A DNA stretch of 59,052 bases, filler included, from Sphacelaria rigidula (lineage: Eukaryota): NCBI GenBank assembly GCA_964200075.2. It is 7 parts of 7 records of this genome, joined end to end, with 100 filler letters (N's around TTAATTAATTAA, not from the genome) between each part and the next. Parts side by side here need not be neighbours in the genome. Positions count along the whole stretch, not along the records: positions 33,804 to 42,153 come from CAXNAA020011432.1; 6 more parts are not named here. One strand, written 5' to 3'. Below, in pieces: positions 3,501 to 59,052 of this stretch (position 1 is its first letter; each line of letters opens with the position of its first letter). Under the pieces are notes generated by a model, which did no database searches, had not been told where the DNA came from, and saw only the letters and a list, made by a program, of their open reading frames with translations. Position numbers and translations under genes: made by a program.

Positions 3501-3574
3501 CATTGAACACAGTTTCCATTTTTTCCCTGGATTTTTCCCGTCTGACCTGTATCGATGCGATTCCACTCCACCAG

Positions 3575-5326: not shown

Positions 5327-5936
5327 GTGTGTTGACCCAGTTACTTGGACATTACTCTCGATGGACATTGGAAAAAAGGTGTCAGTGTTGCACACAACGA
5401 TCGCTTCCCTTTCTGCGGTCGATACTCGACTCCATAGCATGGCAGTCGAGTTCCCATACAAACTACTTTGCCGCTGACTGCACATTTTTCTGGAAAACCC
5501 TCATGAAGTTATTCGTAACCTGACCTGTACGGGTCGCTGCGTACTCAGAAAGTCAGAAATCGTGTTCGAGAAGCAGTGAAAACAATTTCTGATGGCGAAG
5601 GTGCCTCTGTTGAGTGTCGTCAACGAGGCCGGCTCTTCGTCCCCCACTCTTGACGTGCATGTGCTGGTCATGCTGGACACGCCCCATCGGTGCTCATATA
5701 GTACCCTCAGTTGCTCGAACGCACCGCGCAATGAACAAATTTTGGCTTCTTCGAGCTCAGTCACTGAAATATTAAGCCCATATATCGACGCTTTCCTTCT
5801 GTGCGTTTTCCGGATTATTTCTCCATCACGCGGCCGGGACAGCGATAAATGGCACTGCTAATTTTGTTCATTTTTCGGAACATCCTCGTAATTTTTGCCC
5901 TGTTTCGCCCTTGGTTTTGCTTCGTCGTTTATACAG

Positions 5937-9408: not shown

Positions 9409-9586
9409 TGACGGCTGTAGGAGGGGTAAATTACCACAAGTACCTGCCGCCGAGGATCCATCACCTTGTTACATCGGCGACAAAGGTCTCCTCTAATAAG
9501 CTCTGATCGTCACAGGAAATACATGAAAAGGCTCATAAGATGAGGTGCGCGCAGGCGCGTGTGCGTGCGCGCGCGGGGGGGGGGGG

Positions 9587-10108
9587 ATACTCATGATATA
9601 GCATGCCGTAGTCATCAGATCATTGACCTTACGTTCCCATTGAGCCGGGACGGAGCATGCCGGGTTTTCGCCGGGCCAGGCTCGCAGACAATCACCAAGT
9701 GCGAAACGCCATGATGTGTTCGGCGAGTCGCAGGAGGGGTGAGCTGCATCCCGCTAAGATTGTTCGGCACGAAGTGTACTGATTATCTTGCATATAGATG
9801 ACAGCCTCCAATGGGTTGCTTGATTTTCTGCTATCGCCTTTCCCAGGGACAGCAGTGGGCTGCACTGCCTCATGGGTGTCCCACCATACAGAACTGCGTA
9901 GTACGATCATTCCCTTTGCGCGGAGTTGAGGTTCTCCACCCCGAATTATATGATCCCACTCGACCACCATCAAAATAACCACAACAAAAACGCAATTGAG
10001 AAAAAAACCGGTAACCTGGTTGCCTAGCTTACGCAGCGAGTGGTGTGATTTATAGCGTCGTTGCCAATCGACGCCGACCCATAAAGGGAGGATGAGGCGC
10101 GAAATAAG
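9587..10108 (-). mobile_element. 5'-truncated poly(C)-ended non-LTR retroelement, family D
   Basis: Homologous to about 41225-41695, 28326-28679, 42075-42153 and 58980-59052. Ends ..ATGAGTAT+C run on the minus strand; flanking direct repeat GCGCGCGGG at 9569-9577 and 10109-10117. Confidence 0.7.
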
Positions 10109-10736
10109 GCGCGCGGGAGAGGGGTTGGCTTGGATACTACCCTAAGGGGTAAAGTAACACAAGGTTCAGTCACCTCATGTGCCGGTGTGTTGCTCTCGTT
10201 GTTCTGGGCTCCAATGTCACTAGAAATTCTTTTTTTCTTGAATATTAAAGTGCATGTCAAATCTGTTTGTTCACGGGAAAAATTAGCGCAAGTCATCTCG
10301 CACGATACTGTGACTCCATCGACCCCTCGCCGATAACACAGTAGTTTCGACCTGTTCTTTTGCGGCTTTTATTCCCACCTCTTGTCATTGAACGGACGAT
10401 TCTGCACGTTAATCGCTGTGCCGCTTAACTATCAACGACGCATCGTGGAGAAGACGGAGGAGTGCTAATGTAAGCACGACCTCCGATGGTATTTCACTCT
10501 CCTACACGGCAAAACGCGACTTAGAAGGGCTCTGCCTAGCCCATCAATATGAATACCTCTGTGACTGTGAAGGGCCCTATGGTGTATAAATACCGTACTG
10601 TAAGTTCCTGGTGGCGTATGTGAGTGCTTGTATTGGTTTGCGCGCTCGGTGGAACGAAAGGGGGGACCTCGGGAACAGCTCGAGTACTGAGGAGGGCAAT
10701 GTATTTCAGCTGAGATGGCATGGCTCTGGAGTAATA

Positions 10737-16902: not shown

Positions 16903-18170
16903 CTTCAAATCAAGTCTAACGAAAAAATCATATTTTTCGTCAGTTACACGGAAATCTAACGAAAAAATCATATTTTAAAAACGGTTGCTACGGGAGTCAA
17001 ATTATACCCGAAACCGTGATGTTTCGGTGATGTCGGGTGTCGGCGTCGGCTAATTTCTACTTATGTTCCGAACGAAAGACTCGGGGAGCCTCGTGACGGT
17101 GTCCCCTATATCTGTTGTAGAAAAAGCTCAGATCGCCCTCCAACTTGGCAGTTCCGTAGGTATTGATGCTCAAAATGGAAAAAATGTATACTTGATAATG
17201 TTTTCTCCGTTCTCTTACCGGCTTCCGGGAGTCCCAGCATGAAGACCTCCGGAAGGCGGTACACAATGCCCTGGAAAACAAATAATGAAATGATGCGTCC
17301 CGAGAGAGTCCAAGGAACACATGTACACAGTTTGGTGGAGAAACTCGGAAACCTCATACAGTTTTTCTTGCCTTGACGTTAAATTCACCCCAAAATACGT
17401 TTCCATAGTTGAACCAAGTAGTCAGGAGTTGCACGTTTCAAACCCACGTCCTCCACAAACGCGCAAACTTTCACGTCGTCATTAGGAGTGAAATCCTGAG
17501 ACTTCGCATAAATATGCCATGTATCATTACCCAACTTTCGACGGGCGATGTGTTTTGTACTTCTTGAGGTTTTCACCGTTTTTCGGGGATCCGACGGGAT
17601 CGAAGTCGTTTTTCGAAGTAGTCTCCATTCTGGGACCTCAGAAAAACGGCACTGCTATATTATTTTTCATTTTTTCGCGGACTATCTGCCTCCGTAGAAC
17701 CCAACGATGGGCTCCACGAATTTTCGTCGCGAAACTCGATCAACTGATGCCTGAATCTCCATGTTCACGTCAAAGAAGGCCCAAAAACGCCGTTTTGATG
17801 CTAAAATCAAGAAGTCTGCGGTTTCACCGCGGTACTGCAAACTTCATCGCACAAAAGCAAAAAACTTGAAAACGCTTTGAGGAGTTAGACCCTGAATTTT
17901 TGCACAACTCTACTTTGGGACATTACGCAACTTTGCAGGAACGTTTTCTTTCTGGTTACCGTTTTACGGGGGTCCGATTGGGTCGAGATTCCCCCAAATA
18001 ACTGGGACCCCCGAAAAACGGTGAAAAAGTAAAAATTAAAACAAAAACGTTCTGCAAAGTCGCTTGATGACCCATAAAACATTCGTGCAAACGTTCAGGG
18101 TCTAACTCCTCAAAACGGCGTGAAGTTTTGCCGATGAGTATTTTTTGGGTGATACGCATGAACCAGCCTG
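16903..18170. mobile_element. Family B1 mariner-type element, left end cut by contig edge
   Basis: Collinear with about 10990-12237; right TIR TTTTTGGGTGATACGCATGAACCAGCCTG. Confidence 0.85.
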
Positions 18171-18849
18171 TTCGTGGTTCGTCACTTTGTTAAAACGTCA
18201 CAAGTTGTACCGCTATTCTTTGCTGCTACGACTTCATTCAAACGCAATGAATAGACTATACAATCTAGACTCGCAACAAAGGGCAGGTATTTGTATGTAT
18301 GGAACCGTGGTCCGTCGCGCGATTAGGCGTTCGTTTCTACTCGAACGTGCTCCCCGACCGAGTCATGCTACGATAGGGGGGGAGGAGGGGATTTTGGGCC
18401 GTTTTCTGCAATGAGAGTCCACTTCAATCGTCGTCAGAAGCAGCCAACGGCTGTTCGAATGCGCCTGCTCCCGATAAATAACGCTCATACATACTGCTTG
18501 ACACCGCTTTTACCCAAGTACAAGCGCACTGCGAGCGCTTTTTTGGTCGTTTGACGTATCCATGGGCCCATTTTTTCATGGAATCCCCCACCCCCCCACC
18601 TCCCTCCGCCCGTCACCCTGCCTTAGCATGACTCGACCATGCTTTGAAATGTACCTACACAAGGCTCCTCTCGGAGCGTCCTGCCCCCTGCCCCTCTCCA
18701 ACGTTTTGACGCACAAGACCTACCGCCCGAGTTACGCGTGCAGCGGTGGTATCAGTTCACACTTGGGCAAGACACACACCTACGGCCATATCCCACGATG
18801 GGCGCCGACATAACAACATAGTATATTTACACCGGGCTTCCTTTTAGCT

Positions 18850-20500
18850 GCGTCAACGATTCCGTATAATCGTACCGTCGAGGATGGCGGAGGCCATCGC
18901 TTACCGAGCGACCCCACAAAATTTCCATCCACATCTTTCTTGATGCGAGAAGCCTTCCGCATCACCGTCAGCAACGATGTAGTGACCTAATCGGCACACA
19001 GCCCAGTATCCGGGCCCTGGAATCCCCTTGTACATCAGCAACTATCAGCCTCTTCTTCGCCGATGCCAAAGCCGGTATCTGAAAGCATAGCAAAATATGG
19101 GTGACCGTTTCGTCCGTAAATTTATAACAAACGTATTGGGGCGTTTTCGGCGCAAAAAAGGACGCTGCGACGAATTTACTGGAAACTGGTCCGGAGCTTT
19201 CAGCTTGTCGAAGCACAGCCTACGCGATCATCGGACGGGGTGGAATACGCAAGCCACCAAGTCCCACACTTTTTGTGGTGAGCATGGTGCTCGCCACACG
19301 GTGTCAACGAGCCATTTTGTGGATGGCGGCGACCCTCGCCACTGTTCCTAGAACTACGCATTCGATGTTACTTCTTCCGCGAAGAAACAAAGATTTCCTC
19401 GACTACTTGATGTATATCCAGCATCATCCTCTTTCCCGCGGGGATCGGTACTAGTTCGAGCATAACTCCACCAAGAGATATCGACCCGAGTCTTTCACAA
19501 TGCCATACAGCATCAACCAGGCAAGCGAATCTACCTCGCCGCCTATCTGCACTGCACATACACACGTAGGCACACATCGTTGACACAGCAGGTGTCGGCC
19601 TCACAGATCGAAGCGTCGTCAACGCAACCTGCGCAGGGCAAGCGAGTGCAAACTCAAACGGTTTCGCAGAAGGACTCAGTAAGCAGTGGGGAATGCTGAA
19701 GCGAGGGCGGTGGAATACACACAATCTCACCAGAAACGGGTAGTCAGTCGGTTCCGCGCTTGGAGCTTAGCCGATCAACTGCTAACAATGTTTTCGTGAG
19801 ATTGAGAGTAGAGGATACGATTGAGGGTGAAAAGCAGTCAATTAGTGACTGAATCGTTTCAGTTCCAAAACGCACCTCCGTGAGGCCCGATATGTTTTAT
19901 TTAGTAGCTCGCCACTGAGGCCCTTGATATCCCTGAGTAGGATATCGACATGTAGCTGTAAGCACACGCTAGTGATAGAGACAGAAAAGCACACACGGAA
20001 TGAAAAATTGGCTAAGTTAATGCGAATGATCAAAGCCACTCTCAAGCAGCATTCTACTCTCAATCTCACGAAAACGTTGTTTGCTGCCGAGATACCCCCC
20101 CCCCCCCCCCCCCCCCCCCCCCACCGCACCACAAGAAAGAACGACAGAAAAGACNNNNNNNNNNCGTTGTTTGCGGCCGGGATCCCCCCCCCCCCCCCCC
20201 AAACCGGCCAAAAACGTGCACGGAGACGATGATCATAATTCCCGTTTGAGCTGGTTTCGTGCTGCACGCCGCGACTCATTTGGCGTTCTAGCTGTTTTCG
20301 GACTGCTACACGCCTCTCATGTGGGCGAAGTTGCTGCAAACAAGCCCAAAAGTGGGATCGCAGCCGATTTGTCGGACGGTCTCCGGTGCACGTTTTGTGG
20401 GGGGGCTATCTTGGCATTCGTTCATCACGTCCTCGACATCTCTTGCCATCCTGGATCGAGGCGATAGTGTTGTGACGTCCCGAACCACGGAGTCAAGGGC
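18850..20500 (-). pseudogene. Highly degenerate non-LTR (RT/RLE-like) remnant
   Basis: Interrupted frames with fragments such as KKRLIVADVQGDSRARIL, GNFVGSLGKRW and MSRGVQH; weak. Confidence 0.25.
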
Positions 20501-28145: not shown

Positions 28146-28879
28146 CAGTGTTGAAAATCGGGTATCGAGTATCGAGTATCGATTGGTGTTGTCGGCAATT
28201 CTCAGTATCGGAATCGCGAGCTGGTAAGCCGATACTTTTCGATACACAAAATGGCTCTCTCGGGGGCCCCGCCTGCTAAAAAGGGGAGGGGGTCATGCAT
28301 TCACATAATTGTCTCCCTCCCTTTTGGGGGGCAGCGACCTCCGCGCGAAGGGGATGATCGTTCGACGTACTGTTTGAATGGTGAGACACCCATGATGCAG
28401 TTTATAAGCCGTGGCTGTATCTGGAAGTGGCAATACCAGAAAATGAAGCGACTCATCGTAGGCTGTCATCCAAACGCATGATTATCAGTGGGCCTCGGGC
28501 CGAAATATCTTAGCAGGATGCAGCTCACCCTTCGTGCGACCCGCCGAACACATCACGGCGCTTCGCGCTTGGTGATTGATTGCGAGTCTGGTCTAGCCAA
28601 AACCCGGTGTGCTCCGTCCCGGCTTTGTAGGGATGCGAGGTCAATTGTCAGAAAACGACAGCATGCACGACCATGAGTACCCCCCCCCCCCCCCCCCCTC
28701 CCCCTTTTATTTCCCAAACTAACCCTTCGAAGACAGCAAAAAAGGCCCAGAAAATCTGAAACCAGCTTGTGTGGCCATTTCCCAAGTATCGAAAAAATAT
28801 CGATATCGACGTTTTTTCGCCGATTTTTTCAAAAATTGTACTGTATCGAACTTTTTATTCCATTCGATTTTCAACACTG
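28146..28879. mobile_element. hAT-like MITE with a nested family D retro-insertion
   Basis: 15-bp perfect TIR CAGTGTTGAAAATCG / CGATTTTCAACACTG; 8-bp TSD ATAGTTAG / CTAGTTAG (7/8). Confidence 0.85.
28326..28679 (+). mobile_element. Family D poly(C)-ended retroelement, 5'-truncated
   Basis: Ends CATGAGTA+C run; flanks CCCTCCCTTTT (28315) and CCCTCCCCCTTTT (28696); encodes the remnant VIDCESGLAKTRCAPSR. Confidence 0.7.
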
Positions 28880-29040: not shown

Positions 29041-30580
29041 CGAGCTGGGCCAACCCAGGGGCGAACTTATAGTTTGCACGCCCAATATTTAGAGTTGGGC
29101 CGTAAAAATTGGTATGGACAATAAATAGGGCATAATTAAGAAACTACTCGTGCACACCAACATTTTGTTTATCGTAATTTTACGGCATTTTACTGATGCC
29201 TGAAAACTGATTATTACCTTTCAACTCGTGAAACAAACGAAATCTTTGTGTGCACGCGTTTTTTTTTTCTTCTCTCTATTATGCCCTATTCATGGTCCAT
29301 ACCAAATGTTAGGGTTTAACTCTGAATATCGGCCGGCGAATGGGCTGTTTAGTAACCCGGTCCGTAGAAATTCGGAACAGTATTTTGCAGGCCACTTACC
29401 GGCCCACGTCTGGTGTTTGTGTATAATTAGGGGCCCTAGAAGAAGGTGCTCTGGACAGAGGAGAATGTGTAGCAACTCTTCGGATTAATCTCAAATACAC
29501 TTCACTTACTCAACAAAAACCATGCAAGCTCCACCCGAGCTGCGTCCAAAGCCAAAATGCAGATATGCAGTATGCAAAAATGAAGTTCGGCTTGCTGGCA
29601 CGCATGCACCGTGCATCCCCTTATATGTCATACATTCAGTCATGAAACAATACCTTCCCGTCCCAAAATCCAGTATACTTTCGTCAAGCATTATAGTGTC
29701 CCCGAATCAATTCATGTTCATATGCCCCCGGATTTCAGATCGGCAATATTCTTATAGTGTATTGAAATTTTGTGTGGGATTTCTCTAGGGCGTAATGAAC
29801 AAAAACATGGGTAAGGTTGGTATTTATATGTTTTTTCACTGGTTTAAGGCGTTTTAATATGGTAACGGCCATTTTCTTACGAGAACGCCCGAACCTTCCC
29901 CCTCCCCCCCAAAAAAGATTGAAGGCCCATTTATTTTTATTCAGCATACCTCTGTGGTTATCCATGCTAAGTTTCAAATTACAATTCTAATGATTGAGCC
30001 AAAAAGTTGAGATGAGGCCCCAGATCAATGTTCATTTCTCCTCAAAACTCCTCTAAAAACACGAAAAAAATGAAAAAAAACGAAGAAAGAATAAAAAGTG
30101 GTTTTATTTTATAATGCAGTAGAGGTTCTCCATACGAAATCTCATAGGACAACTGTCACAAACTGAGACGCGACATCCAGATTCAGGGCATCTAGTGCCT
30201 CTGCTCGTAATATTTCGATTTTAGTATGGAACCTTATATGCGTCATATTCCGAGATAGATGACGAATTAGGTGAAGGTGAGGGTATCTATCGTCTCCCCG
30301 TGCTCGTGGGAATGTCCACACCAAAAATCATCGTCATCCGCTGAATGTATCGTTCGGGGTTTCATATAGATTTTAGTATGGACGCTATCTCCGTACGGTA
30401 TAGGAATGACTAAATATGGGGTGTAATCAACGAGAAAATATTAGCCCATATTTTTGAGGAGATGGGCACCTTTCCCTTGATAAAACGATTTTTACGACAT
30501 GCGGATCATGGCCCAACTCTTCTGTGTCGATGAGATATTGCTTTGAGAGCTTAAACCCGTTTCTAGGCTGAACCAGCTCG
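29041..30580. mobile_element. Non-autonomous mariner-type element (family B2), about 1.54 kb; partial copies at 50704-51332 and 58797-58950 (inverted)
   Basis: TG|CGAGCTGGGCCAACC ... GGCTGAACCAGCTCG|TA; about 29970-30580 is collinear with 50704-51332. Confidence 0.8.
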
Positions 30581-31570
30581 TATGCGATTCAAAAGCCACC
30601 TTCATGGTTCACGTGAAATTTACTCTTGTCACCCAGTGTTACGCCGGGGATTAGTGTCACGTTTCCCACCACCACCCCCACAATGAAGACGCGACGGAGT
30701 CAAAAATAGTGCACAGAGGATTATATTGCAAATAAAGCGATAGGTGGCTGTAGTATGTATCTGAAGCTACCTTCTCATCCCAGTCCGGCTCAATTCCACC
30801 CAGTACAGCTCACAAACCAGCGATGGATATCCCTAAAGAAAGTACTGCCTCGTTGTACAAGCGAGAAAGTCATTTTCCGACATGTCCCTCGGACACGCAA
30901 CCGAAGATTACTGATACTGTACAGATGCCTGCAAGCTGAAACTCTGCAGGGTGGTGTAGCTATCTACTAGCCGTCGTTTAAGCCTAAGAGCGCTTTGGTT
31001 GGGGGGCTGGGATAGTGCAGTATCTTCCGCGTAATATTTTCACTCTCCCCCCGTTTTTTCACCTGCCACAGCGGTCCGCGCTGCCAGAAACTGGAGGGCT
31101 GATAGGCATACGTTTTATCTACAGAGCAACTTGATTTGCCTCTGGAGCTGCCGTATCGAGATATTGCCATCTCGATGAGGGGTGTTGGAACATGTGGAAT
31201 GCGGTGTAAAAACCCATCCGGTCATAGTTGGTATTCAAATTGAGCGGTAAGTAATTGCGCCGCGTTCAGTTGGTTTTGGTTCATGCTACGATGCGGGACG
31301 CACATTTGGTCGCAAACCCTCATCATTCAGGATCTCCTAAGGCCAGGAATAATACAAGATTGAGGGTCAGGCTATTCTAGTGTCATAATCCAATCCGGAT
31401 ATCCCGAGCCCTCGGAAATGCTGATCGTGACGTGCTCATTTAAGTTACATGATGCAATATGTTTTCGGCCGACCGAGAAATGGAATGAGTTCGATTCCGA
31501 AATGCTTCGCTGGGCCTTATATGAGTACCAAAACGCTTTCTGTAGCAGGTTGCCATGAACCCTTTGATTA

Positions 31571-32160: not shown

Positions 32161-33844
32161 TGTTGATGGCAAAAAATGGACAATTTGGAGTGAAACGTAA
32201 AAGAACAAAATCCCAACCAACGCTAGACTTGCAAACTCGCGAAAACCTTGTTATTACTCGTGGGTTGGATGAGATGGAGGGCACGTAATAATTCGACGCT
32301 CGGAAAATGGTTGTGCGCCCCTATACCGCAGCACCACTTCACGTGTACATCTTGGGGATATATATTTTCCGCAAACATACATGCAACAACCAACATTGCC
32401 CGCCAGTTGGAACTACGTTACACAGATGTGCATGCCGTTGTCTCTGGGGTGGCGCATGAGGTGTGCTTCCGGGATGGCCGTGCAACGTGTAACGCATGGT
32501 CACATCCCGCCGACTCGCTGTGTCGTCCGCAAGACCGTAAGCGTTCGGAATCGAAAGAGTGGTACCGCTGAAATGATGTCGGTCTTTGCTTCGAAGAATA
32601 GGTGGTCACATCGACTGTCCGGTGTGGTGCAGGCGGAATATCGATGAGGAAGTGGCACGTAGATAAGGAGGAAAAACATCATCCCACGTCATCTCTCTAC
32701 CGTTCAGCACATTGAAAATCAGGTCATCAAAATTGAGGGTGGAACTATTTTTTGAGGATGATAACCGGAAAGCTGAAATAATCGAATTCACAAAAATAGT
32801 TCAAAATATTGTTGCATCCCTTCACCCACCGGTAGCCATCGGTAAACACTGCACGCCGTACAATTCTGGGTTTCGCTCACCGAAATTAGGGGTCCCTGGA
32901 TGAATATATATATATATATATATGGGTGACATACGTGATACATAAGGATCGCCTACATTCCCCAACATCGCCTTTTCACCTTGGACCTCAAAGTTTCGGT
33001 TCTTTGCATCCACAATTGTTCGGCATGCAGTTGTCGCCAATGGCTGCCAGTACGTGAACGAATGCAACAAGGGGGCGAAGAATTGGTGTAGATAAAAACA
33101 TTTCAACATTCCGGGTGGCCATCTTCATCGAAATCCCAATTTTGAATATCGACTGCGATCGGTGTTACCAACGATGCCTGGCGGTTCGCCCGCTGTGCAG
33201 AACCAATTTTGACACAGCCTAACTCCTGGAGTCGATGCGCGTGCGGTGGCCGGGTCGCACAGTGCTCCAAGACGTCAAGTGCAAGTCCATGTCTTCCACC
33301 TGATTTATTTTCTCTGAATCGTTTGATTACTATCAATGCTTGCTTTCACGTTCAACCGGCGATTCGCCCAAGGGCATAGCCGGACTACTCGCCGTATTGA
33401 TGTGCACCCAAGGGCGCACCACTCCAAGCACAACATATCATTGCAGAAGCACACCGTGAAGTAAATCGGATTCCGAGTGCAGCGGGTTGGAGGGAGAGGA
33501 TCCGGTATCGGGAGCGGGCAAAGACCATGACGATAAATTCGCGTCTTGATCCAACCTGTGTAGGAAGTTGAAGACATGTATCGTGTAGATAGATTGCGCA
33601 GGTATATGTCTAACTGTGACTGTTGTTATCTTGGTGGGGGGGGGCTTCTCATGTGTTGCTTGCCTTAGTCGTTTGACCATTGACCACGCATCCCTTTTGA
33701 GACNNNNNNNNNNNNNNNNNNNNNNNNNNNNNNNNNNNNNNNNNNNNTTAATTAATTAANNNNNNNNNNNNNNNNNNNNNNNNNNNNNNNNNNNNNNNNN
33801 NNNCCCCACAGGGGTACACAGGCGCCCAGAATAAATGGGACGAC

Positions 33845-34410: not shown

Positions 34411-34452
34411 GTACTTTCCAGTGATTCTCCGATAGGGGGGGGGGGGGGGGGG

Positions 34453-34518
34453 CGTACTCACTTGTTGCTTGCCTCAGTCGTTTGACCATTGATCACGCAC
34501 CCCTTTCGAGACGGAGCA
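34453..34518 (-). mobile_element. Family E poly(C)-ended LINE 3' end (66 bp)
   Basis: G run + CGTACTCACTTGTTGCTTGCC..; direct repeat GATAGGGG at 34431 and 34519. Confidence 0.75.
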
Positions 34519-34761
34519 GATAGGGGAGGGTGAGGGGGGTGTTCGATTCCCCGAAACAAAAGGCTTATGGGTGTGTCAGACGACATTGAACACTCGCTGT
34601 GCGCTTGTATTTGGATAAAGACGGTGTCAAGCAGTATGAATGAGTGCTATTTATCGGTAACAAGCGCGTTCGAACAACCGTTTCAGCTTTCGACGACGAT
34701 GTGAATTGCATTATCGTGGAAGAAATGGCCCAAAACCCCCCCCCCCCCCCCTCCCCCTAGC

Positions 34762-34888
34762 TACGGAAGGAAAGTAATGAGCACCAAAATGTTGGAGGTG
34801 TCTCTATTAGGAGTAGGAACGGTGCTCCGTCTCGAAAGGGATGCGTGGTCAATGGTCAAACGACTAAGGCAAGCAACAAATGAATACG
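34762..34888 (+). mobile_element. Family E poly(C)-ended LINE 3' end (127 bp)
   Basis: Encodes VGGVSIRSRNGAPSRKGCVVNGQTTKASNK*; perfect 17-bp direct repeat CCCCCCCTCCCCCTAGC at 34745-34761 and 34889-34905. Confidence 0.85.
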
Positions 34889-36092
34889 CCCCCCCTCCCC
34901 CTAGCGTAGGACGACTCTTTCATGATTGATCATTGGAATGCCCCGCAGGTGGGAGGACACGTCGCTTGAGAGAGTCTGGCTGTCATTATGTCAAGTGAAC
35001 ATGAAAGACGGTTACAAAAATCCCAATACACACACACACGCACACGCATACACACACGCGTATACACAGGAGGTAGTTGGCGATCAGAAATCCCACACAG
35101 ACAATTCCTGGGCACGCCAAAGACTTCACGTTTCCCCTCCTTCACCCACAGCAAGTACTGGAGTCACATCTAAGATCAATAAGTCAACATAATCATGACT
35201 TCTACATGTATGCTCGTATACTTCCTCTGTCTCGTGAGTTAGGGTACCTAAATCTGTACAGGCCCTCAACCGTGGCCGATCTGTTGTTCGATTTTTTTGT
35301 CGAAATCTTCGATGTTTTTCGGGTAAAAAACGTTCTGTTTTTCAGCCGGCGCTTGAACCATGCGGCCGAACGGCCGAAAAAAACAGTCGTATTTCACGCC
35401 TTTCCCACGGGAAAGAAAGTGTCGATGGCCATTGCGTAGCGGTCACCAATCGGTATCTTGGCGCCCCGTTTGCGAGGTGGGGGTGTGCTGAGGAGCGAGT
35501 TCATCGCTAGAATGGTGTAGTGGACAGGTAGGGTACTAATTTTGGACGCTTTTGAGATTTTTTCGAGAACTCTCGAAAACATTCTCAAAAAATATCCTCA
35601 AAACTATCCTCAAAATAGGCCAGAATAGGGTATAATATAACCATGTCAGGTGAAGGAATTGAACCCCGTTTTTTCTTTCCTTCCCCTCGAGCTTCGTCTT
35701 CGTATTTTTTTTCTGACGAACCCGACTATACTATCCTCACCAACACGGTTGTACCCAGACAACATATTGCCCATGGGTACCCTAACTTATGAGACAGAGG
35801 AAGTACATGTCGTCTTTTTTTATCCATCAACTGCGGAGTAGGCTCATGTATCATCATGAGCCCTGCTCACTATTCCAGGGCGCTTTTTGCACGTGCGACC
35901 GCAACGTTTCAGTAGGATCCATGCGAAGTCCCCGACGACCGAAATTCACGGTTGACACCTGCTGCAGTATCATCAGAATGAGTAGCAGTCGCTGGGTTTT
36001 GTGTGGATACTTACGACTCACTTATCTGGATCTTCCGAGAGCTACCTCTAGGATTTTCCCGTTGTCCGCAGTACCCGTTTTTGGCTCGAACA

Positions 36093-36416
36093 CCCCGGTG
36101 GTGTAATGGTCCGCCTGTCGCCTTCGGGGTGGGGAGGTCGTGGCTTCGATTTCCGGTTCGTTGGGTTTTTCCGTCGAAGTATCTGATTTCCACCGTCGAA
36201 AGCGTCAGCACGAGAGTAAACAAATATTAGTTGACTGATTCTGTTTGACGACGGCCGACGCGGTACGGGAGTGTAGATAGTCATGACCCAACCAATCCCC
36301 GAGACTAAAATGCAAGGCGTGTACCGGGGGGGAGATGGGTTGATCCCTTGAGACAGACCACGGACTCGATCGTCGTGAGGAAAGGGAGGGGTTCGAAGTG
36401 CGACAATTGAAGAAAT
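36093..36416 (+). mobile_element. tRNA-derived SINE, full length
   Basis: A box GGTGGTGTAATGG, B box GGCTTCGATTTCC; body shared with 1-198 and about 40620-40782. Confidence 0.75.
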
Positions 36417-36428
36417 ACAAGGGGTGTA

Positions 36429-37557
36429 CGAGCTGGTTCAGATTGAATACCCAGAATTTATTACCCGGCATTTCCTCACGCCGTTTTTTCGAGTTGGACC
36501 ACGAAAATTTGCACACATGCTCTCGAGGGCACTATCTTGAACTCGAAGACCGGGTTTTTCTTTATTTTGGGTTTGGTGTCGAGATAGTCGGGATCTGACC
36601 CCTCCCCCGGCCAACTAGGTAAATCGCGACCTTGGATCAAAAGCCATCAACATGAAAAATTGAAAAAAAAAAAAAAACAGTTTTCGAGTTTTGGATAGTG
36701 CTCATCAGAACATGTGTGCAAATTTTCGTGGTCTAACTCGATAAAACGGCGTGAGGAAATGCCAAAACGTGCGCTGAAGTGTTAAAAAGTCTGTAATTAC
36801 TTGATTACAGTACATAATCGCCCTTTTCGAGGGTTGTTTACATGGTGGCAGACCCAACCGATTCAGTTTTTCGAGTTGAGCAACGAGAGTTGATACTCAT
36901 GTTCCTTGGGATACCACCTAACTCTGAGATGCCATGCTTTTGGTGCTGAGGCGTTCTTTACCGGTTTCCGGGGGTCTTTTTGCCGGGACCCCCGGAAGCC
37001 GATACAGAACGGAGGAACTTTGAAATCTTGCCAAGAATATTATTTTTCCATTTGGAGCATCAATACCTACGGAACTGCCAAGTTTGAGTATGATCTGAGC
37101 TTTTCTACAACAGAGAAAGGGGAAATCGTCAGGAGGCTCCGTGGGTCTTTCGTACGTATCATGGTTGAAAATTACACGACGCCAAAGCACCACATCACCG
37201 AAGTATTGTGGTTTCGGGCAACATTCGACACCGTTGGAACCGTTTTCACCTCTGTTTCTCTCGTTAGATTTCCAAGCTGATGACGGTTACCACGATTCAA
37301 ACCATGTGGAGATTCGGTGGAAATTGGGCTTGGAATTTGTTTTTTCAATTCCGAAACAGTTTGAAGGGCGCTGATTGGTCCAAACACACTTTTGCCAATA
37401 GCGCCACCGCTATGGCCTTGAACAAAAATCTAGTTATGTCACCCTTTTTGTCTGTTCATTGCGGTCAGTATGATACCACATTAGTGCATATTGGCCGGGT
37501 ATTGTGTTCGTCCTTAGCCAGGGAATGATTTTGGGGTATTCAATCTGAACCATCCTG
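36429..37557. mobile_element. Family B1 mariner-type element, complete shorter variant
   Basis: TA|CGAGCTGGTTCAGATTGAATACCC ... GGGTATTCAATCTGAACCATCCTG|TG; internal homology (inverted) to 10737-12237. Confidence 0.85.
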
Positions 37558-39250: not shown

Positions 39251-40619
39251 CGATGATTGTTTGAGGGGGGGAGGGGCGTACTCATTTGTTGCTTGCCTTA
39301 GGCAAAGTGTTGGGGCGGGGCGGGGGAGTTGTTGCGGATTCCGCAATAACCGGTCCGCGGCGGCGTGCCCTCAAGCGTCCGGTAGCCCGGCTTCGAACGA
39401 CGATTACTATACTCCCTACCCACCGCGATTTCTATTTTTCATTCTCTTGAAGGAAGAAGAAGACCTGACCCAATGCTTACCCCGCGAGTGGGTTCGTGTG
39501 GCGATTACCCGGAGGCTCGGCTAGACTGGCTGGCGGTAGTCATGGGGGGTAGGCGCCTCGAGCGTTCGCAACCTTTGCTCAAGGCGGTGTTGGGGTCCGG
39601 CCCACTGAAGCCCCATATGTCAACTTGGTGCAGTTCACACGCCGCCCTACTATCATGAGATTCGGCCGTAGGGACCGCCTCGAGTTGTTGAGAAACCGAA
39701 GAGATTGGGCTATTTGTCTTGTTGTGGCTAGTCGTGCTGTGAGTTCGCATACACAAGGATATCAGCTTTTTGTCGCCAGCAAAAGCGAATTGATTTTGAG
39801 TGTTCTGAACCAGCACGGAACGAGGTGTTAGCTTTAGTTCGTTCTCAATTCAAGATTAACCTGCTATTCGTGTAAGCAAGGTTGTGCCGTGCGTTGGTAC
39901 TGGCTGTGGCTAGCACCCCCGCAGTTGGTCTGCAGCTGACACCGTGCGTTTTTTTTTTCTTCCTTTTTTGGTACTGTACCCGCAAACTCCGAAGCCTGAA
40001 GAGCGAAAAAAAATCAGAAATCATCATGCTGGGGCATCGGCTGTTGTACTCTATTTATTCAAATCAAAGATAGCAAAAAAGCGCGGCGGAACCAAATTTG
40101 ATGACTTCTTGATGAATCAATTGGGGTTAAAAAATTACACGATGAGGCATATCCTGTTTCGGGTGCTCCTTTTACCTTACTGGCCACGAGGAGCAGCACG
40201 TGGTCGTGAAACACGGGACGTTCATTTTTGTAGAGCAGCCGCAATCCTCAGTTTTTTACCAGCCACGTGTCATTCTCCACTGTGTGGAGCTCGTTGCGTG
40301 TCTCCAAAAGCTTCGGTTGCGTTCGGCGGAATAACGCGGCAATATCACCACCTAACCCGGGGGGAAGATGTGCAAATATTTTTGCTCAAATAGCAACGCC
40401 CTACTTCCTTTTGGCCACGGTACTATGTGAACACGGGATTTTACAAATTGCGGGCGTTTATCTTTTATTGAGGATGAACCTCAGTAAGCTTCAGAAGCAT
40501 ATGGATATTTTCGGAATAAAAATACAAATGCACTCTCCGGCCGTGGTGTGTTGCCTTGCTCATTCTCAAAAAAATCTATTCATGCAATAATTTGTGAAAT
40601 CCCGTGTGTATACAAGAAC

Positions 40620-40782
40620 ATTTTCGACCTCGGTCTCCCAAGTGAAAGTTTTTTCTTCGTAATGTATGATTTCCACCGTGAAAAGCGTGAGAACGTGAGT
40701 AAATAAAGTAGTCGACCGGGTTTGTATGAGGTGAGTTGACGCGGTGCGGGAGTGCTGACCCAATCCGCGAGACCAAAATGTG
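40620..40782 (+). mobile_element. SINE body fragment
   Basis: Near-identical to positions 1-100 (GAGAACGTGAGTAAA.AAAGTAGTCGAC..GACCAAAATG). Confidence 0.7.
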
Positions 40783-41224: not shown

Positions 41225-41780
41225 CAGACCACTGACCTCCCATCCGTACCAAGCCGGGACGGAGCACGTCGGGGTTCGTCGGACCAGACTCGCAATCGCC
41301 AAGCGCGAAGCTCCGTGACGTGTTTCGGCGAGTCGCATTAACGGTGACCTACATCCTGCTGAGATTGTTCCGCATGAAGCGTACTAATTATCTGGCATAC
41401 GAATGACAGCCTCGAATGAACTGCTTCATTTTTTGGCATTGCCACCTCCAGAGACAGCCATCCTTACAAACGCTGCCTGACGGGCGTCTCCCCATTCCAA
41501 CATCACGCAGTCCCACGGCTCCCTTTGCGAAGGGCTAAGGTTCTCCACCCCGCACAATATGATCCGACTCGACCACCATCCATGGTTACAACAAAAAACG
41601 CAAGTGGGGAAGGAAGCAGTAACCTGGTTGCCTAGCTTACGCAGTGAATGCCGTATTTTACAGCGTCGTCACCCGCCGACGCCAACCTTCAACGGACGGG
41701 GAGGGGGGGGGTACTCATTTGTTGCTTGGCCTAGTCGTCTGACCACTGACCACGCATCCCTTTCGAGACGGAGGGGGGGG
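41225..41780 (-). mobile_element. Family D copy (41225-41695) abutting a short family E 3' end (41711-41769)
   Basis: The D part is collinear with 9620-10090; the E part is flanked by GGAGGGGGGGG at 41700 and 41770. Confidence 0.7.
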
Positions 41781-42305
41781 AGGTGGGGGGGATTTTCCGG
41801 GGAGCAAGCAATCAGCGGGCAAATCCCCACCTACGGAGCTAAAATCGAAGCGGGAAATGTTTCCCAAAAACGCGATAAACAGCGCGTCACCTGTGCCTCA
41901 GACGAAAGCGGTGAAATGACACCGGCCAGAGAAATGATTGATTGATTGATCGATTGTCGCACTTCAACTAATCCCCCAGGGGTCCAGCTGTGGTCTCATG
42001 ATAGACGTACCCACGAAAAACGAAACCTAAACACGCTCTGAGGAAAAATGAACATAAAAGAAAAGAGGGGTCGCCGCCTGCGAGCCTGGGCCGGCGAAAA
42101 CCCGGCGTGCTCCGTCCCGGCTACGTAGGGATGCGAGGTCAATGGTCTTATGANNNNNNNNNNNNNNNNNNNNNNNNNNNNNNNNNNNNNNNNNNNNTTA
42201 ATTAATTAANNNNNNNNNNNNNNNNNNNNNNNNNNNNNNNNNNNNNNNNNNNNCGATCTCGTTGGATCACCGATTTTCAGATTTCCGGTCTTGCAGTTTT
42301 TAGCA

Positions 42306-49899: not shown

Positions 49900-51547
49900 A
49901 CGTAGTGTGTGTTGAGAAGGTGAACAGCGAGGATTTCAGAACGTGAAAATTGCAGACACCAGTAATCCGTCTAGGGGTCATGCTTGCAGGTGTAACGTGG
50001 TGAAAAGGGATTGACACCAGTGTATTTCATTACCAAGGCGCGGCGCCCACCACGTCGTCATGACCGCACCGATGAACGCATGCTCAGTACTTACATGTAC
50101 CAGCTGCGAGGAAGACTCGCAGACGACTTACTGGTGTCTGAATTACATAGTATTGAAATCCTTGCTCTCATCCTTTTTCGGGGAACACTGCGCTATCGTC
50201 GTGTCGCTGTCCTGCGGACACGTCGGCCCCAGGGTATTGAAACTCCGATGCGATCCTAAAGCACGCGGTCTGAACATGCGGTACACGGCAAAGTGTCTCG
50301 GTAGCGACCGATCCAACGTCAGAAGGAAGTGGCAATACAGAGCGTGGGAGCACGCTTTTGACCAAACCTGCGAGCAAAAACAGAAGAAGTCTCCTAGTTC
50401 TCACTCGCCATGATACGATGTGATGCGGGCAGACTGATGAGTGCCCGCCTGCCGTATGCTTCATGTTCAATTCCAGCGAGAAACATGCAAGCGTTTCGAG
50501 TGCCCACGCGACTGGAAGCCCATCGACGACGACCGAAAGGAGTGTCGCGGCGAGTGAGACAAAGACGAAGCATACGACCAGGGTGAAGGACGAGGAGTGA
50601 GGGNNNNNNNNNNNNNNNNNNNNNNNNNNNNNNNNNNNNNNNNNNNNTTAATTAATTAANNNNNNNNNNNNNNNNNNNNNNNNNNNNNNNNNNNNNNNNN
50701 NNNACTTTCAAATCACATTTCTAAAAATTGAGCAAAAACATTGAGATAAGGCCTAAGAGCAACGTTCATTTCTCCCCAAAACTCCACTAAAAACGCGAAA
50801 AAAAATGAAGAAAAAAAATAAAATAAAGAAAATGAAGAAAAAAGTGAAAAGGGCAGCAAGTACTTTTTATTTATTTATTATGCACTAGCCGTCCACCACA
50901 CGAAATTTTATAGAACAACTCTCAAAAACTGAGACGCAATATCCAGATTCAGGGCATGTAGTGCCTCTGCTCGTAATATATTGGTTCTAGTATGGAAAGT
51001 TATGTGCGCCATATCTCGGGATATATGAAGGTGAGGGTATCTATCGTCTCCCCTTGCTCCAGAGAACGTCTACACCAAAAATCGTCGTCATCCGCTGAAA
51101 GCATCGATCTGGGGTATCATAAAAAATTTAGTATGGACGCCATCTCTGTTATGTGTAGGAATTACTAGACATGGGGTTTAATCAACGAGAAAATATGGGC
51201 CCAAACTATTAAGCAGATGGGCACCTTCCCCTTGGTTAGACGATTAATACGATATGATCATGGCCCAACTCGTCTGTGTTGATGACATATTACTGTGAGA
51301 GCTTAAATTTGTGTGTAGGCTGGCCCAGCTCGTAGGGATGCGGGGTCAAAGGTCATGAGACCACGGCATGCATGATCATGAGTAGTACCCCGCCCCCCAC
51401 GTATTCGTCACACCTTGTTACCGTTTCGAGCTCTGTGTCCTGTGCCCGCATGCCCGTAACATCATTTCTTTCCGAGTGTTTGATTTTGGTTGATTCGACT
51501 CTTTGTCGCAGATTGCCTGACATCCTAAAATGGCAATATGAACATAC

Positions 51548-52658: not shown

Positions 52659-52948
52659 TTACCGGATACCGCAAGTCGTTCCGAGGTGGCGAAATCCGCC
52701 TAGCTCTCTAGTAGGGCGTAAATCGGCTTGAAAGCTCCAAAAAGTACTTTGTCCAGATTTATAATTCTTGTGTGCTGTAAGGAGCGGCCTAAATGGGACG
52801 AGGTGTTTTTTCGTTGTGTACTTGACCGGACTGCCTTTTTTGGGGGGGGGGGTTGCTGCCGATGATCAAACTGCCGGGACTATATCCAGGGCTGTGGCCC
52901 GTGACACTCACTTACATCTGCCTCGTTTTTGGGTTTGTGTTATGTCAG

Positions 52949-53034: not shown

Positions 53035-53478
53035 GTATGTAGCGCCCCGTGTTTCATTGTCCGTCGCGGGCGAGTCGTAGAAAGTTCGAGTTGAGGAGAG
53101 GTGTGTGGATTTTTCGGCAGGTGCATGCGATGAACTGAATCCATTCGGGTCTCGTACGCAGCTATCGCCAGACAGTCGTGTTGGACGTCTATAACCGACG
53201 TGTCGGGCTCCCCTTGACACCCAGCGCGTTACTCTACTTGTGCAATCCTATCCCTGTGTCGTATATATATATACCCGTTTTTCCACGCGCGCAAAATGCC
53301 GTTCATATTGGTCCAGAGTTGGTGTATACTGTCGAGGCGTAGCTGTCAACACTCACTTCAGGCATGCGTTTACCCGATGGTCCTTTATACCTGGTAACAA
53401 GAGCTACTTTCGGCTCCTTCTTCGCTCTATTGGGTATTTCATGGGGTCTACATCGCCCCGGCCGTGACCCCCCCCTCC

Positions 53479-53718
53479 ATAGTTGGGTTGATGGTAGCGA
53501 GAAAACGATTGTTTTTGTGGGAGATGGACGGTGACCACAGACGGCGAAACAAGAGGCGAGTATGATCTGTCAAAAGGTTTTGCGTAGTGTACGGAAGAAA
53601 TGCAGTGAGCGCGCAAATATTTTGGATATCTCCATTTGTGGTCGGAACGATGCTTTCCCTCGACAGGGGTGCGCGTGGTCAGAGGTTAAATTACTAAGGC
53701 AAGCAACAGATGAGAACG
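53479..53718 (+). mobile_element. Family E poly(C)-ended LINE 3' end (about 240 bp) in a protease intron
   Basis: Homologous to 56050-56243; direct repeat CCCCCCCCTCC at 53468 and 53723. Confidence 0.75.
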
Positions 53719-53775
53719 CCCCCCCCCCCCTCCCGGTGCTTACCTGGAATTATGCCTTGTTGGTGTCATTGGCAG

Positions 53776-54699: not shown

Positions 54700-55854
54700 G
54701 TGAGATGGAGCTGCTCATGGTCGTCACATGTACAGTTCGCCTCAGGGTCGTTATAATCGGGCACGTCATGCTGTTTTTTTCTTTCAGACTTTTCCGTTGA
54801 AGAAAAAAAAATCCCCGAAGATGTGATGGCAGATTCCTCAACGAGGTCAAGGAACAGAATAATTCAAGACTGAAAACATATTTCTCGCATAATTTAGCGT
54901 CGTCTTCTCATTGTTCGCAAAGCCGGGGATTTTTCCGGAAGAAATTGAACAAGAATCGCGACCCCGGCTGACTTGTCGCGCTTACGTTTGCTTTTTTTTT
55001 TATCGTGACCACGCGGATAATGTGACGTGAAGACTACAGTAGTCAGTCACACTTGGTTACCACGACTCATATAATAGTGGTTTCTGTTTGATTCCAAATT
55101 TTGGGAATCGAGACACATGAGTATCCGTCACAAGCTTTGAAGAAACAAAAATCTAGTAGAAAAGTTGAAGGTGATGAGCGGGCTCACCGGTCTTTGTGGT
55201 CCTACGAGTGTACCACCCCCGTTTATCGCTCTATGATATTTTCGCTTGAACGAACCGATCCCGACAATTACAACGAACAATTTATCGTTTCCAGTTATTC
55301 AAATTTCTCTCTCTCTATATATACACATTGCGCTACAGCTGAAAATCCATTCTTTTGGATCGTATGCTGCGACTCCACCGATTCCCCCTTGCATGAGTTG
55401 GTGATTTGAACCCTGCTTTATAACTGCCACACGTACTCGTCATTTTCTGCCGTGAGACGAAACGTTTGCACGAAGAACACGAGGGGTTCTCCGGTGCTTG
55501 TTGCACACCACTTGATATCCTTGTACTCTTTCTCATCAAGGATAGGTTCGTGTGGCCGAACGCGGCGTGAAAAGAAATGCGGTCAATGACACCGCCTCGA
55601 AAAACGGGTTTCCCCCCTCCGTATCGTTCCGACAACCTAGTATTGAGTAATGTGTTCTGAGCATGACCTTCTTCTTCAACGCCCACCGACTCTCGAACTC
55701 TCGAGCGAAGATGGCAAATCGTCTCTCAAAACAATCTCGATTGAGTGAACACCAGTTTCGGAGTTTGACTAATGTAGATTTCTTCACTAGCGAAGTAAAA
55801 TTTGAGTCCGTTGAATGGCAAGATCCCGTTCATGCTGGTAAATAAGGAAGAACA

Positions 55855-56243
55855 CTTGGAGATATACGGGTGGACCAGTCGTCGAAAAGAGGAGGAAGTA
55901 GATGGACAGAAGTGCCCCACACATATAGTGGCAAAATGTGAACTATACAAGGGGAACGGGACGTGCTAGAGGGGGTAATGCGAGACGTGAACGAAGGTGG
56001 GATGAAATCGTTCAATGCAGTGGACTCTAAGAAGATGACGACGACTATACTGGGAGATAGATGGCCAGAGACGGCGAAACAGGACGGGGATAAGACATGA
56101 AAAGGTTTTTGTGTAGTGTATGGAAGAAACGATTCGAGCGCCGGAATGTTGGAGGTGTCTATTAGGAGTAGGAACGGTGTTTCGTCTCGAAAGGGATGCG
56201 TGGTCAATGGTCACACGACTAAGCCAAGTTGAAAATGAGTACG
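55855..56243 (+). mobile_element. Longest family E LINE 3' remnant, with the C-terminal ORF end and poly(C)
   Basis: Frameshifted reading EEEVDGQKCP-THIVAKCELYKGERDVLEG..TILGDRWPETAKQDGDK..RFLCSVWKKR..SIRSRNG..SRKGCVVNG; ends AAATGAGTACG+C run. Confidence 0.75.
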
Positions 56244-56970: not shown

Positions 56971-59052
56971 ATTTCCTCCTCTGTGGCACGGGCTCGTGAA
57001 TAGACCCGTGACTTGAGATACGATTTTGGGAATGATGCCAGCGGGAAGAGTACGGCAGGACACGTACGCACGCTCAGCACTGAAGTGTTGTACTAGGCGC
57101 GACTTTTGCCGGCACGTAGCTACCTTTATCCTTCCACGAGGAAACCAGACGCATGATGGCTCACTCGCCGGTTACCGTTGCGTTCTCTTGACTGTGGGCT
57201 TTATGATTACCTTTTTCGTGACGTGCTTATTTCGCTGGCACCAGGGTGTACAGAAGATGTTCAAATTCCTCTCGTGTCGCGGTGGTATGATTGGGTGTTC
57301 TGATGGTTCTATTATTTTGATTCTCAAGTTGTCAAGTTAACTCGTCCAGTAGTACGTTTTGAAATAGAAACGGTGCAAAGCCTAGGGTGAGAGATGGAAG
57401 CCGGAGTGGTATTCGTTGGTGTGAAGGCGGTAGTCGTTGCGCCCTTCGGATTTCAATGCACGGGAGAAGAAGAAAAAGGTTGGAGAGGTGTCATGATCAT
57501 TACGCCACAAGTCCCAGATGCAACGTGGTGAGTATTGTGTGTTGGCCTGGGGTAATCCGTAATTTGTGTACGCGATTCGCCTTCCTCGTAACCACTGTAC
57601 ATCTGGGCAGTTATTTTTTTTGTATTTTTGCTGAGCACCTTGGATTTTTCAACACAGCCTTGAAGCGGAGTATGGAGACGGTTGTCTTCTCTTCCCTCAG
57701 CCGTCCGCCACGTTCGCAATGCCGTGAGATATTGCGGAGATAGATGGTAGCTTCCGCGCTTTTTCTTTGGTCTGTCGCAGGCTCTCGACGCAGCCTGTTG
57801 CGGTGATGCGTTTTCTGTTGGGGTGAGATTCGGGTACAGGGGCGCAGTATACAGGTATTGGGGCACAATAAGTGCATTTAGTCAACCACGCATGGTTTTT
57901 GTGTGCGTGTCTTCTTGGTTTAGTTCCCTGCGAACTGTAGCCCGCAGGAGATGTTCTCTCATGCTCTGTACTTGGAAGAGCTAGCAAGGACGTTGACTGG
58001 GCATAAAGAAGACGTTGTACAGGATCCAGATTAATATTGTTCACATTTTTTGCCCGTGTATGCTATTGGGCCGGAAGTGATGGCGGTGCTGAAGTTATTG
58101 CTGACGAGCTGTCGTGAAAATAGTGGAGAAATGTCGAAGTTGTCATGATTTTGTCTCCCATACGTGTACAGACTTCCTCTCGCGGCTGGTTGTACCATAA
58201 ATGATGCACATCTTACCTTGGGTTGTTGAGCTTGACCGTCGCGCGTGGGTCCCTCATCTCCGTGTCCTATCTTGTCTTTTTTCACATTCGACACGAAATG
58301 ACGATCGTGGGCTTGACCAACAACACGGCGCTATTTCTGATTACATGGATGCGAAAGCTGATCTTGATGAGCTATTTTGAAGGCAACTTCAAAATCGATG
58401 GGGGTTGAGGTCGTATCTTCCCGATACCAAAAAAAAGCGGGAAAAGAAACAGGCGCCCAAAAATAGCATGTTCATTGATCGCCAGGTGGGTTCATGGTTG
58501 GGGTGACTGATCAACATGCTGCTTTTGGACGTATGGTCCTTTTCAAGCTTATTGCGTTCTCGGTCTCGACGTTGATCATAATTATTTCCGCACATAAGTC
58601 CGATCTCTCGAATCTGAGGTCAAACGTACGGTTGATTGCCTTCCCAGTATCGTACCTGCTATTCCTTTCAAGACGTGGGTCCTCGCATTTTGTTTTAGAC
58701 TCCAGGCTTACTACACGAACAGACATCAGAAAACAACTAAAACCGCACCAAAAATGAAAACTAGAAGAAAGATGCCAACAGAACATGTGGGAGGTACGAA
58801 CTGGTCCGGCCTAGACTTAAGCTCTCGGAGCGATTATCTCATCGACAAAGACGAGTTGGGTCGCGACCCAAATATCGTATATCTGCTCAAAAGCCTGGGC
58901 CATTTTTTTTCGTTTAATAAACCCCATATCTAGAAATTTCTATACACTTATTGCGGTATCCCCCCCCTCCCCCCCCTATATGGTGAGACACCCATGAGGC
59001 AGTGCAAAAGCTGTGGCTGTCTCGGGAAGTGGCGATACCAAAAAATAAAGCA

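Follow-up and report, generated by a model that had tools for sequence, protein, structure and literature searches.

Introduction

Mammalian L1, a long interspersed nuclear element (LINE), has a poly(A) tail and a TTTT/AA nick, and the eel pair UnaL2/UnaSINE1 is of the stringent type, in which a LINE and a short interspersed nuclear element (SINE) share a 3′ stem-loop and a short tail repeat. A very short 3′ untranslated region (UTR) is a trait of the RTE clade. The tails of RTE-clade LINEs and of their partner SINEs are simple repeats, namely (CAA)n, (GTT)n, Tn, and (ACCTTT)n, and the first nucleotide of the target-site duplication (TSD) matches the repeated tail nucleotide (PMC13295347). RTE-X elements are more abundant than any other LINE group in Ectocarpus, where the non-coding RTEX-N1_Ec32, ~600 bp long, has a 3′ end common to RTEX-1 and RTEX-2; the main text of that transposable element (TE) paper makes no mention of the RTE-X tail or target (PMC12477816). 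Here, two families of C-tailed fragments, E and A, are described from a stretch of 59,052 bases of Sphacelaria rigidula DNA (GenBank assembly GCA_964200075.2; hereafter the window), composed of seven pieces of ~8351 bp each that are joined by N44-TTAATTAATTAA-N44 spacers. The window has few long open reading frames (ORFs) and is repeat-rich by self-BLAST.

The best explanation of these fragments, and in our judgment a probable one, is that E is a 5′-truncated LINE with an apurinic/apyrimidinic-type endonuclease (APE), that A is mobilised in trans, and that insertion proceeds through pairing of a C run with a G-ended primer. The C-tailed family is a new variant of the simple-repeat-tail scheme of the RTE clade. 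No description of a C-tailed LINE or SINE was found in the literature search, which lay outside Repbase Reports and most subscription journals.

E and A share with mammalian L1 a homopolymer tail that would pair with the complement freed by the nick, a TSD that starts with the tail base, heavy 5′ truncation, and trans partners, whereas their pairing would be C/G instead of A/T, their tail does not come from polyadenylation, they have a conserved 3′ box, and they belong to another clade. UnaL2/UnaSINE1 resemble E/A in the conserved 3′ stem-loop and tail common to LINE and partner and in a variable tail length, as with slippage, but the E/A tail unit is 1 nt (C), not a pentamer, and the 3′ box of E overlaps the ORF end. 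The RTE LINEs and SINEs (Bov-B/Sauria SINE, legume RTE/SINE) are like E/A in having a single ORF with APE and reverse transcriptase (RT), a non-poly(A) tail, and partners with the 3′ end of the LINE; E differs from these LINEs in its C homopolymer tail, the C-run start of its TSDs, and a longer ORF with an N-terminal domain and CCHC. The Ectocarpus couple of RTE-X and RTEX-N1_Ec32 is mirrored by E and the 522-bp A (PMC12477816).

Family E and its full-length relatives

Family E is the 5′-truncated 3′ end of an autonomous APE-type LINE. An exact-pattern scan of public assemblies for the E tail recovered four contigs. Two of them, L001 and L002, are metagenome contigs, and L003 is a contig binned into a bacterial metagenome-assembled genome (MAG); each has a single long ORF on the element strand, of at least 1253 amino acids (aa) in L001, 1426 aa in L002, and 1382 aa in L003. 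The only Pfam domains at E ≤ 0.01 are RVT_1, Exo_endo_phos, and Exo_endo_phos_2, with RVT_1 at E 1.1e-30 (L002) and 7.7e-33 (L001) and the APE domain Exo_endo_phos, located N-terminal to the RT, at E 6.7e-13 and 3.1e-11; RNase H is not among the domains found at this threshold. In 20 homologues, the APE catalytic positions N, E, D-N, and D-H and a C-x-C-x8-H-x4-C motif are conserved, and FADD is invariant.

The C-termini of L001–L003 have the form ..CPCGKAIESRTHIVAEC..GCVVNGQTTKASNK and read ..GCVVNGQ.TKASNK before the stop, which is located inside ..AAATGAGTACG. After the stop codon come GTACG and runs of C8, C10, and C13, giving a distance of 5 nt from stop codon to C run. The fourth outside copy (L071) is truncated to 335 bp and has the tail C10TC9, which brings the C run at the 3′ junction to 4/4 outside copies. 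An ORF with APE, RVT_1, and CCHC thus ends 5 nt short of the C run, which places family E among the APE-type LINEs, with a layout of a single ORF of ~1380–1430 aa containing an N-terminal domain, APE, RT, and C-x-C-x8-H-x4-C, and no poly(A). The repeat search of L002 and L003 found no long terminal repeat (LTR) or terminal inverted repeat (TIR); apart from a tandem of 62 bp at the 5′ end, all that it returned were short repeats expected by chance. A guess at an L002 TSD, CCTTATCA, was dropped, since the L003 homology extends further upstream.

The window copies agree with these relatives. The ~406-nt copy at 55838-56243 reads ..KEEHLEIYG..CP-THIVAKCELYK.., and the ORF end of the window E copies reads ..GCVVNG.TTK.S.K before the stop; in E3, the ORF end ..GCVVNGQTTKASNK and its stop are followed by ATACG. 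The original prediction, made from the window sequence alone, had claimed an ORF remnant with CP-THIVAKC and a stop about 5 nt before the C run, both of which are present and matched by the C-termini of L001–L003. Its reading of the fragments as products of target-primed reverse transcription by a non-LTR element is likewise borne out by the truncation, the TSDs, and the APE and RT ORFs of L001–L003, and the check that it proposed on full-length copies returned APE as the endonuclease class beside the RT, and no TIRs.

In its 3′ UTR of 5 nt, its simple tail, (C)n as against (TAT)n in a sister family, and its single APE-RT ORF without RNase H, E resembles RTE/RTE-X elements. Among named homologues of the E ORF, Ectocarpus proteins come closest, at 55–66% identity, and the homologue cluster at 69% identity includes Ectocarpus members. 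From this homology and the published TE census, E may belong to RTE-X rather than to RTE or "LINE/Unknown." Together with the label "algae metagenome" on one of the sequencing runs that include piece 5, the homology points to a brown alga or a near relative as the probable host. L001 and L003 are 95% identical across 3.8 kb with open frames, which suggests that the family was active recently somewhere. The MAG containing L003 has no further copy beyond L003, and viral contigs gave 0 matches to two element patterns. At least 2.5 tandem units of 62 bp are located at the element 5′ end in L003 (5109-5259), with a similar unit at the L002 contig end; they resemble the 5′ UTRs of monomer type that certain LINEs have.

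The fixed 3′ end and the C run

In BLAST against the full-length relatives, the 3′ terminal base is identical in all seven window E copies, which are 28–406 nt long and thus represent variable 5′ truncation on a common 3′ end. The readable lengths of the E/A fragments are 28, 63, 66, 127, 240, 352, 406, and 522 bp, matching the predicted variability of the other end (about 60 to 520 bp). The fixed end ..ATGAGTA(CG), with a C-rich run within 3 nt, is present in 10/10 copies whose 3′ end is readable (41252-41687, with a degenerate end, being excluded), and their tails are C9, C18, C7, C4TC7, C8, C12, C12, C12, C19, and C3GC6. The pattern ATGAGTA-N0-2-CCCC is found at five loci in the window against 0.05 expected, a count reached by 0/100 shuffles; the other 14 window ATGAGTA sites have neither the 3′ box nor a C run. 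The fixed end and abutting C run of the original prediction are therefore confirmed by the readable copies and the shuffle control. No A run occurs at any of the 14 readable 3′ ends (10 in the window and four outside), and C runs are present at 14/14; an L1-type poly(A)-dependent LINE was rejected on this absence of A runs.

Target-site duplications and the empty site

Six TSDs had been predicted, of which five are exact and directly adjacent to the element (CCCCTATC, CCCCCCCTCCCCCTAGC, CCCCCCCC(TCC), CCCCCCCCTCC, and CCCGCGCGC, with lengths of 8, 17, 8–11, 11, and 9 bp, respectively), whereas the sixth, CCCTCCC[CC]TTTT (28315/28696), is inexact by a 2-nt indel within the C run. All six start with at least three C. 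Two controls were used: words of at least 8 nt arose in 27/16000 trials with random upstream flanks vs. 5/8 real copies, and words with at least three non-C letters arose in 0/56 mismatched flank pairs vs. 3/8 real pairs.

The E3 insertion can be compared with an empty site. The host-repeat paralogue at 18300-18420 (−) has the C-rich..TA(G/T)C tract once, followed by GTAGCATGACTC, and at 34745-34905 the same C-rich tract is present twice, one on each side of the E3 insert. Comparison with this paralogous empty site confirms that 34762-34888 was inserted.

A repeat of ~230 bp, named F, was observed at 34524-34752 (+) and 18375-18604 (−), with copies 77% identical. The 5′ end of F, rich in G, includes GTTCGATTCC, resembling a tRNA T-arm, and its C run comes after ..GGCCCAAAA, with homology extending ~16 nt beyond that run. 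F could be a SINE-like partner or an element of another type.

Origin of the C run

The number of C residues differs between the two sides of some insertions. The upstream TSD copy of E2 has 4 C vs. 18 in the downstream run, and that of A1 has 3 vs. 12, so C was added by insertion and the target alone is insufficient. As all six TSDs start with at least three C and a C run of at least 4 lies within 20 nt upstream in 7/10 copies (hand count), the target is C-rich on the sense strand.

A mechanism that would join these observations starts with a donor copy whose templated C run would be included in the transcript. The endonuclease would nick the bottom strand so that the freed 3′-OH ends in G (on the top strand, between W and CCC), and the G's of the nicked strand would anneal to the RNA at its C run and serve as the primer for reverse transcription; a G-ended primer paired in this way would make the TSD begin with C. 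The new copy would gain C from the carried tail and from slippage, the latter varying the run length. The C-rich end of the top strand would next find the first GG in the cDNA and prime the second strand by microhomology. Old tails would in turn serve as new targets, with copies piling up in each other's C runs, and the piled-up copies would seed C/G homopolymers. That the RNA ends in oligo(C) and pairs there with a G-run primer accounts best for the sequences; this model is plausible and unproven.

The 5′ junctions are consistent with the second-strand step. At least 11 contig joints in the runs X1, X2, X4, and X6 have a C-rich run joined directly to ~34823, for example, the joint 34757 -> 34823 in 22, 3, and 16 contigs of X1, X2, and X4, and two window copies begin at this truncation hot spot. 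The terminal 70 nt of E contain a single CC, in GCTCCG, precisely at the ~34823 hot spot (~66 nt from the end), and truncation there would be common because the sole CC of the last 70 nt is there. These joints suggest microhomology at the 5′ junction.

One other explanation is that the RNA ends in ..GAGTACG without C and that the endonuclease targets pre-existing G/C homopolymers, all C at the junction being target. The C start of the TSDs and the C-rich upstream flanks suit this view, as does the placement of E3 and E5 in C tracts of older repeats, the insertion point of E5 being the C tail of another repeat; however, E2 and A1 gained C at the 3′ junction alone, and the short fragment at 51335 has the tail CCCGCCCCCC with an upstream flank that is not C-rich, which makes the explanation improbable. 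Some non-LTR reverse transcriptases add untemplated nucleotides, and the RT could extend the nicked bottom strand with G's and only then engage an RNA without C, giving a sense-strand C run independent of the donor, in agreement with the wide range of tail lengths (7 to 19). This alone does not predict C-starting TSDs, and the 4/4 outside copies have C8–C13 or C10TC9 after GTACG, where read-through transcripts would include the run; the (TAT)n tails of the sister elements also look templated, and we consider untemplated addition no likelier than the preceding explanation. The addition of oligo(C) to the RNA by a cellular or element-encoded nucleotidyl transferase, in the manner of polyadenylation, is very unlikely; nothing favors it directly, although it would explain the uniform C tails across E, A, and the other C-ended repeats, and Pfam shows just APE and RT in the ORF, with no transferase domain, while templated tails are a simpler account. 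That the fragments are not retroelements, but MITE-like DNA transposons (miniature inverted-repeat transposable elements) with G-run/C-run termini, Penelope-like elements or retrozymes, or poly-G sequencing artefacts, is hardly credible, since the G-rich 5′ end and opposite C run of the F repeat and the CTGATGA inside A1 are set against full-length copies that encode APE and RT without TIR or LTR (which refutes it for E), no ribozyme in Rfam at either the gathering threshold or E ≤ 10, and C runs that are internal and TSD-flanked in at least five independent assemblies.

Several points weigh against the preferred explanation of an RNA C run paired with a G-ended primer. No RNA 3′ end was observed, the runs compared being contigs that are incapable of showing RNA ends, and the tails could have been lengthened by slippage within the homopolymers once inserted. 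L001–L003 all stop short of the true 5′ end, with no full-length TSD. A TSD is absent from two of the six E copies that could be evaluated and from the L071 copy. Mismatched flank pairs give matches of 8–23 nt via C runs alone, and, as C-only matches arise freely among C-rich flanks, the TSDs at 41711 and 53479 are weak taken alone. The base preceding the TSD is A/T in 6/6, but its being non-C follows from the way in which a TSD is delimited, and the preference for A/T over G at this position is not significant.

A stronger form of the G-primed explanation is that these elements follow the L1 rule in a genuine C/G form: an oligo(C) 3′ end of the template RNA would pair obligatorily with a G-run 3′-OH made by their endonuclease, the tail would have been swapped from (TAT)n to (C)n in one clade, and, through re-targeting of their own tails, the elements and their partners would be the main source of the thousands of G/C homopolymers in brown-algal genomes; this is quite possible, and we put it forward tentatively. 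The pairing of tail and target is central to LINE site choice, but nearly all work on it concerns poly(A) and a small number of A/T-rich repeats. In the E family, the RNA recognition box would have been kept, while the tail and target preference moved to C/G. Together with its (TAT)n sister, E offers a natural comparison for the determinant of the nick site (protein vs. RNA) and for tail replacement.

Family A and the shared 3′ box

Family A has no reading frame and has the same 3′ box as E. Its box aligns with that of E and with those of sister LINEs, and the common form is GCTCCG .. G(A)TGCG(T/A)GGTCAAT (GATGCGAGGTCAAT), a small hairpin, and then CATGAGTA. RNAalifold on 13 ends places the small hairpin after GGTCAATGG, with compensatory changes at 3/8 pairs. 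The two families had been predicted to be related, which holds in the sense that E is the 3′ end of a coding LINE and A is non-coding with the same 3′ box. Rfam (gathering threshold and E ≤ 10) and ARAGORN (0 genes) found no tRNA, 5S, or 7SL head in A. Family A is presumably mobilised in trans; it may just as well be the long 3′ UTR of another LINE. A ribozyme or Penelope origin, suggested by CTGATGA in A1, was rejected, as Rfam gave none at the gathering threshold and unrelated weak matches at E ≤ 10; a Penelope-like or retrozyme identity is also discarded on the APE endonuclease and the lack of a ribozyme match in these searches.

More distant relatives of E, with 36–59% aa identity, are found in records titled as bacterial or archaeal MAGs, which are probably eukaryotic contigs binned in error. 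The sister LINE of one such record (G002) resembles E in this identity and in retaining the box ..GTGCGTGGTCAATGG..GCAGCAACATGAGTA at its ORF end, but differs in its (TAT)n/(TATT)n tail; TAT/TATT-type tails are present in 19/19 recovered ends and the C run in 0/19, the 19 being the ends matched by pattern among 30 fetched loci. Since these relatives have the same 3′ box and (TAT)n tails, the tail acts as an exchangeable module, as it does in LINEs of the RTE type.

Several MAG-titled records (L005–L069 and G002) contain LINEs with APE and RT. In G002, a 16-Mb "Nitrospirales" record, contigs reach the Mb scale and the 3′ end of one LINE is found at least 41 times; such bins probably contain DNA of eukaryotic hosts. 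In the window, a G11 run adjoins TTGCTGCCGATGATC at 52842-52870 (−), so that the other strand reads ..CGGCAGCAA and C11, which resembles the ..CGGCAGCAAC portion of the sister-family 3′ box.

Copies in the window

Self-BLAST and BLAST against the full-length relatives gave seven family-E copies and six family-A-type fragments (Table 1), 13 in total where the original prediction had counted at least 12. The predicted spread over five contigs was not upheld, as the E/A fragments are confined to pieces 2, 4, 5, and 7, and piece 3 has only other C-run-ended repeats. The flanks of E7 (55838-56243) were searched for a TSD and none was found. The short A-like fragment with its tail (51335-51398) adjoins the end of an unrelated repeat.

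Table 1. Family E and family A copies in the window, with their tails and target-site duplications (TSDs).
Feature	Position	Strand	Remarks
E1, 3′ fragment	33648-33703, with tail 33636..33703	-	cut by the end of piece 4; G9 on + strand
E2, 66-nt 3′ fragment	34453-34518, with tail 34435..34518	-	tail 18 nt (G18 on + strand)
E2 TSD GATAGGGG	34431-34438 and 34519-34526	-	exact
E3, terminal 127 nt of the LINE	34762..34888	+	91-93% identity to L001-L003 3′ ends
E3 TSD, 5′ copy, 17 bp CCCCCCCTCCCCCTAGC	34745..34761	+	within C-rich tract of older repeat (F1)
E3 TSD, 3′ copy	34889..34905	+	begins with C7 run adjoining the element end
E4, 28-nt 3′ fragment	39277-39304, with tail 39265..39304	-	tail CCCCTCCCCCCC; no clear TSD
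E5, 63-nt 3′ fragment	41711-41773, with tail 41698..41773	-	C8-9 tail; TSD CCCCCCCC(TCC)
E6, ~240-nt fragment	53479-53718 (53468..53733 with TSDs)	+	C12 tail
E6 TSD CCCCCCCCTCC	53468-53478 and 53723-53733	+	homology extends up to the TSD on re-alignment
E7, ~406-nt degraded fragment	55838-56243, with tail to 56255	+	CCHC remnant; C12 tail
A1, 522-nt non-coding	9587-10108, with tail 9575..10108	-	C12 tail (G12 on + strand)
A1 TSD GCGCGCGGG	9569-9577 and 10109-10117	-	exact
A2, ~352-nt	28328-28679, with tail to 28698	+	C19 tail
A2 TSD CCCTCCC[CC]TTTT	about 28315 and 28696	+	inexact
A3, family-A copy	41252..41687	-	degenerate 3′ end; adjoins E5
A4, family-A fragment	42078..42153	+	cut by the end of piece 5
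A5, 5′-truncated	58976-59052, with 5′ run from 58960	+	cut by the window end; C8TC8 directly 5′
Short A-like 3′ fragment (GGGATGCGGGGTCAAAGG..ATCATGAGTAGTA)	51335-51388, with tail to 51398	+	tail CCCGCCCCCC

C/G homopolymers

The window has 36 C/G runs of at least 7 nt vs. ~5 expected, as estimated from base composition. By hand classification, 14/36 are tails or TSD/5′ flanks of E/A copies and 6/36 belong to other C-run-ended repeats. The suggestion that the elements generate the many long C/G homopolymers here is thus upheld in part; the elements would account for a large share of this genome's surplus of long C/G homopolymers. In algal genomes, such runs lead to gaps in assemblies and errors in sequencing and are potential sites of G-quadruplexes or i-motifs, and the elements merit recognition in the repeat annotation of brown algae. 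Short repeats that by look form a further C-run-ended family are found at 20060-20122 (..GTTGTTTGCTGCCGAGATA and C28) and 20165-20200 (..GTTGTTTGCGGCCGGGAT and C17), with an N10 assembly gap between them that may be due to homopolymers.

Other repeats and reading frames

A further very abundant repeat is present at 36165-36403, 40648-40780, and 1-183, and loose ends upstream read ..GGGTTCGATTCCCGATG.., which is tRNA-like. Summed word depth is ~4.8e5 in the bin 40500-40778 of this repeat and 1.8 million in the A4 bin (41895-42153) vs. ~67 in unique bins; such depths, 3e3 to 7e4 times those of adjacent unique bins, are not copy numbers, are possibly inflated by poly-C words, and are taken only as "highly repeated."

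A dispersed 1.2-kb repeat has copies at 11015-12234 and 16949-18167 that are 81% identical, with related pieces at 10790-11339 and 36947-37504. The X repeat, ~630 bp long, is found at 50706-51334, 29972-30582, and 58795-58946 (−) and ends in ..CAGCTCGTA without a C run; in one of its copies, the short A-like fragment and its C tail are inserted precisely at the X end. Two long ORFs on the plus strand, at 3464-5335 and 5895-8351, have tandem repeats rich in Pro, Thr, Glu, and Ala, with a period of 18 aa (54 nt) in the second, and have the appearance of mucin-like surface or wall proteins, with a GC content of up to 70%.

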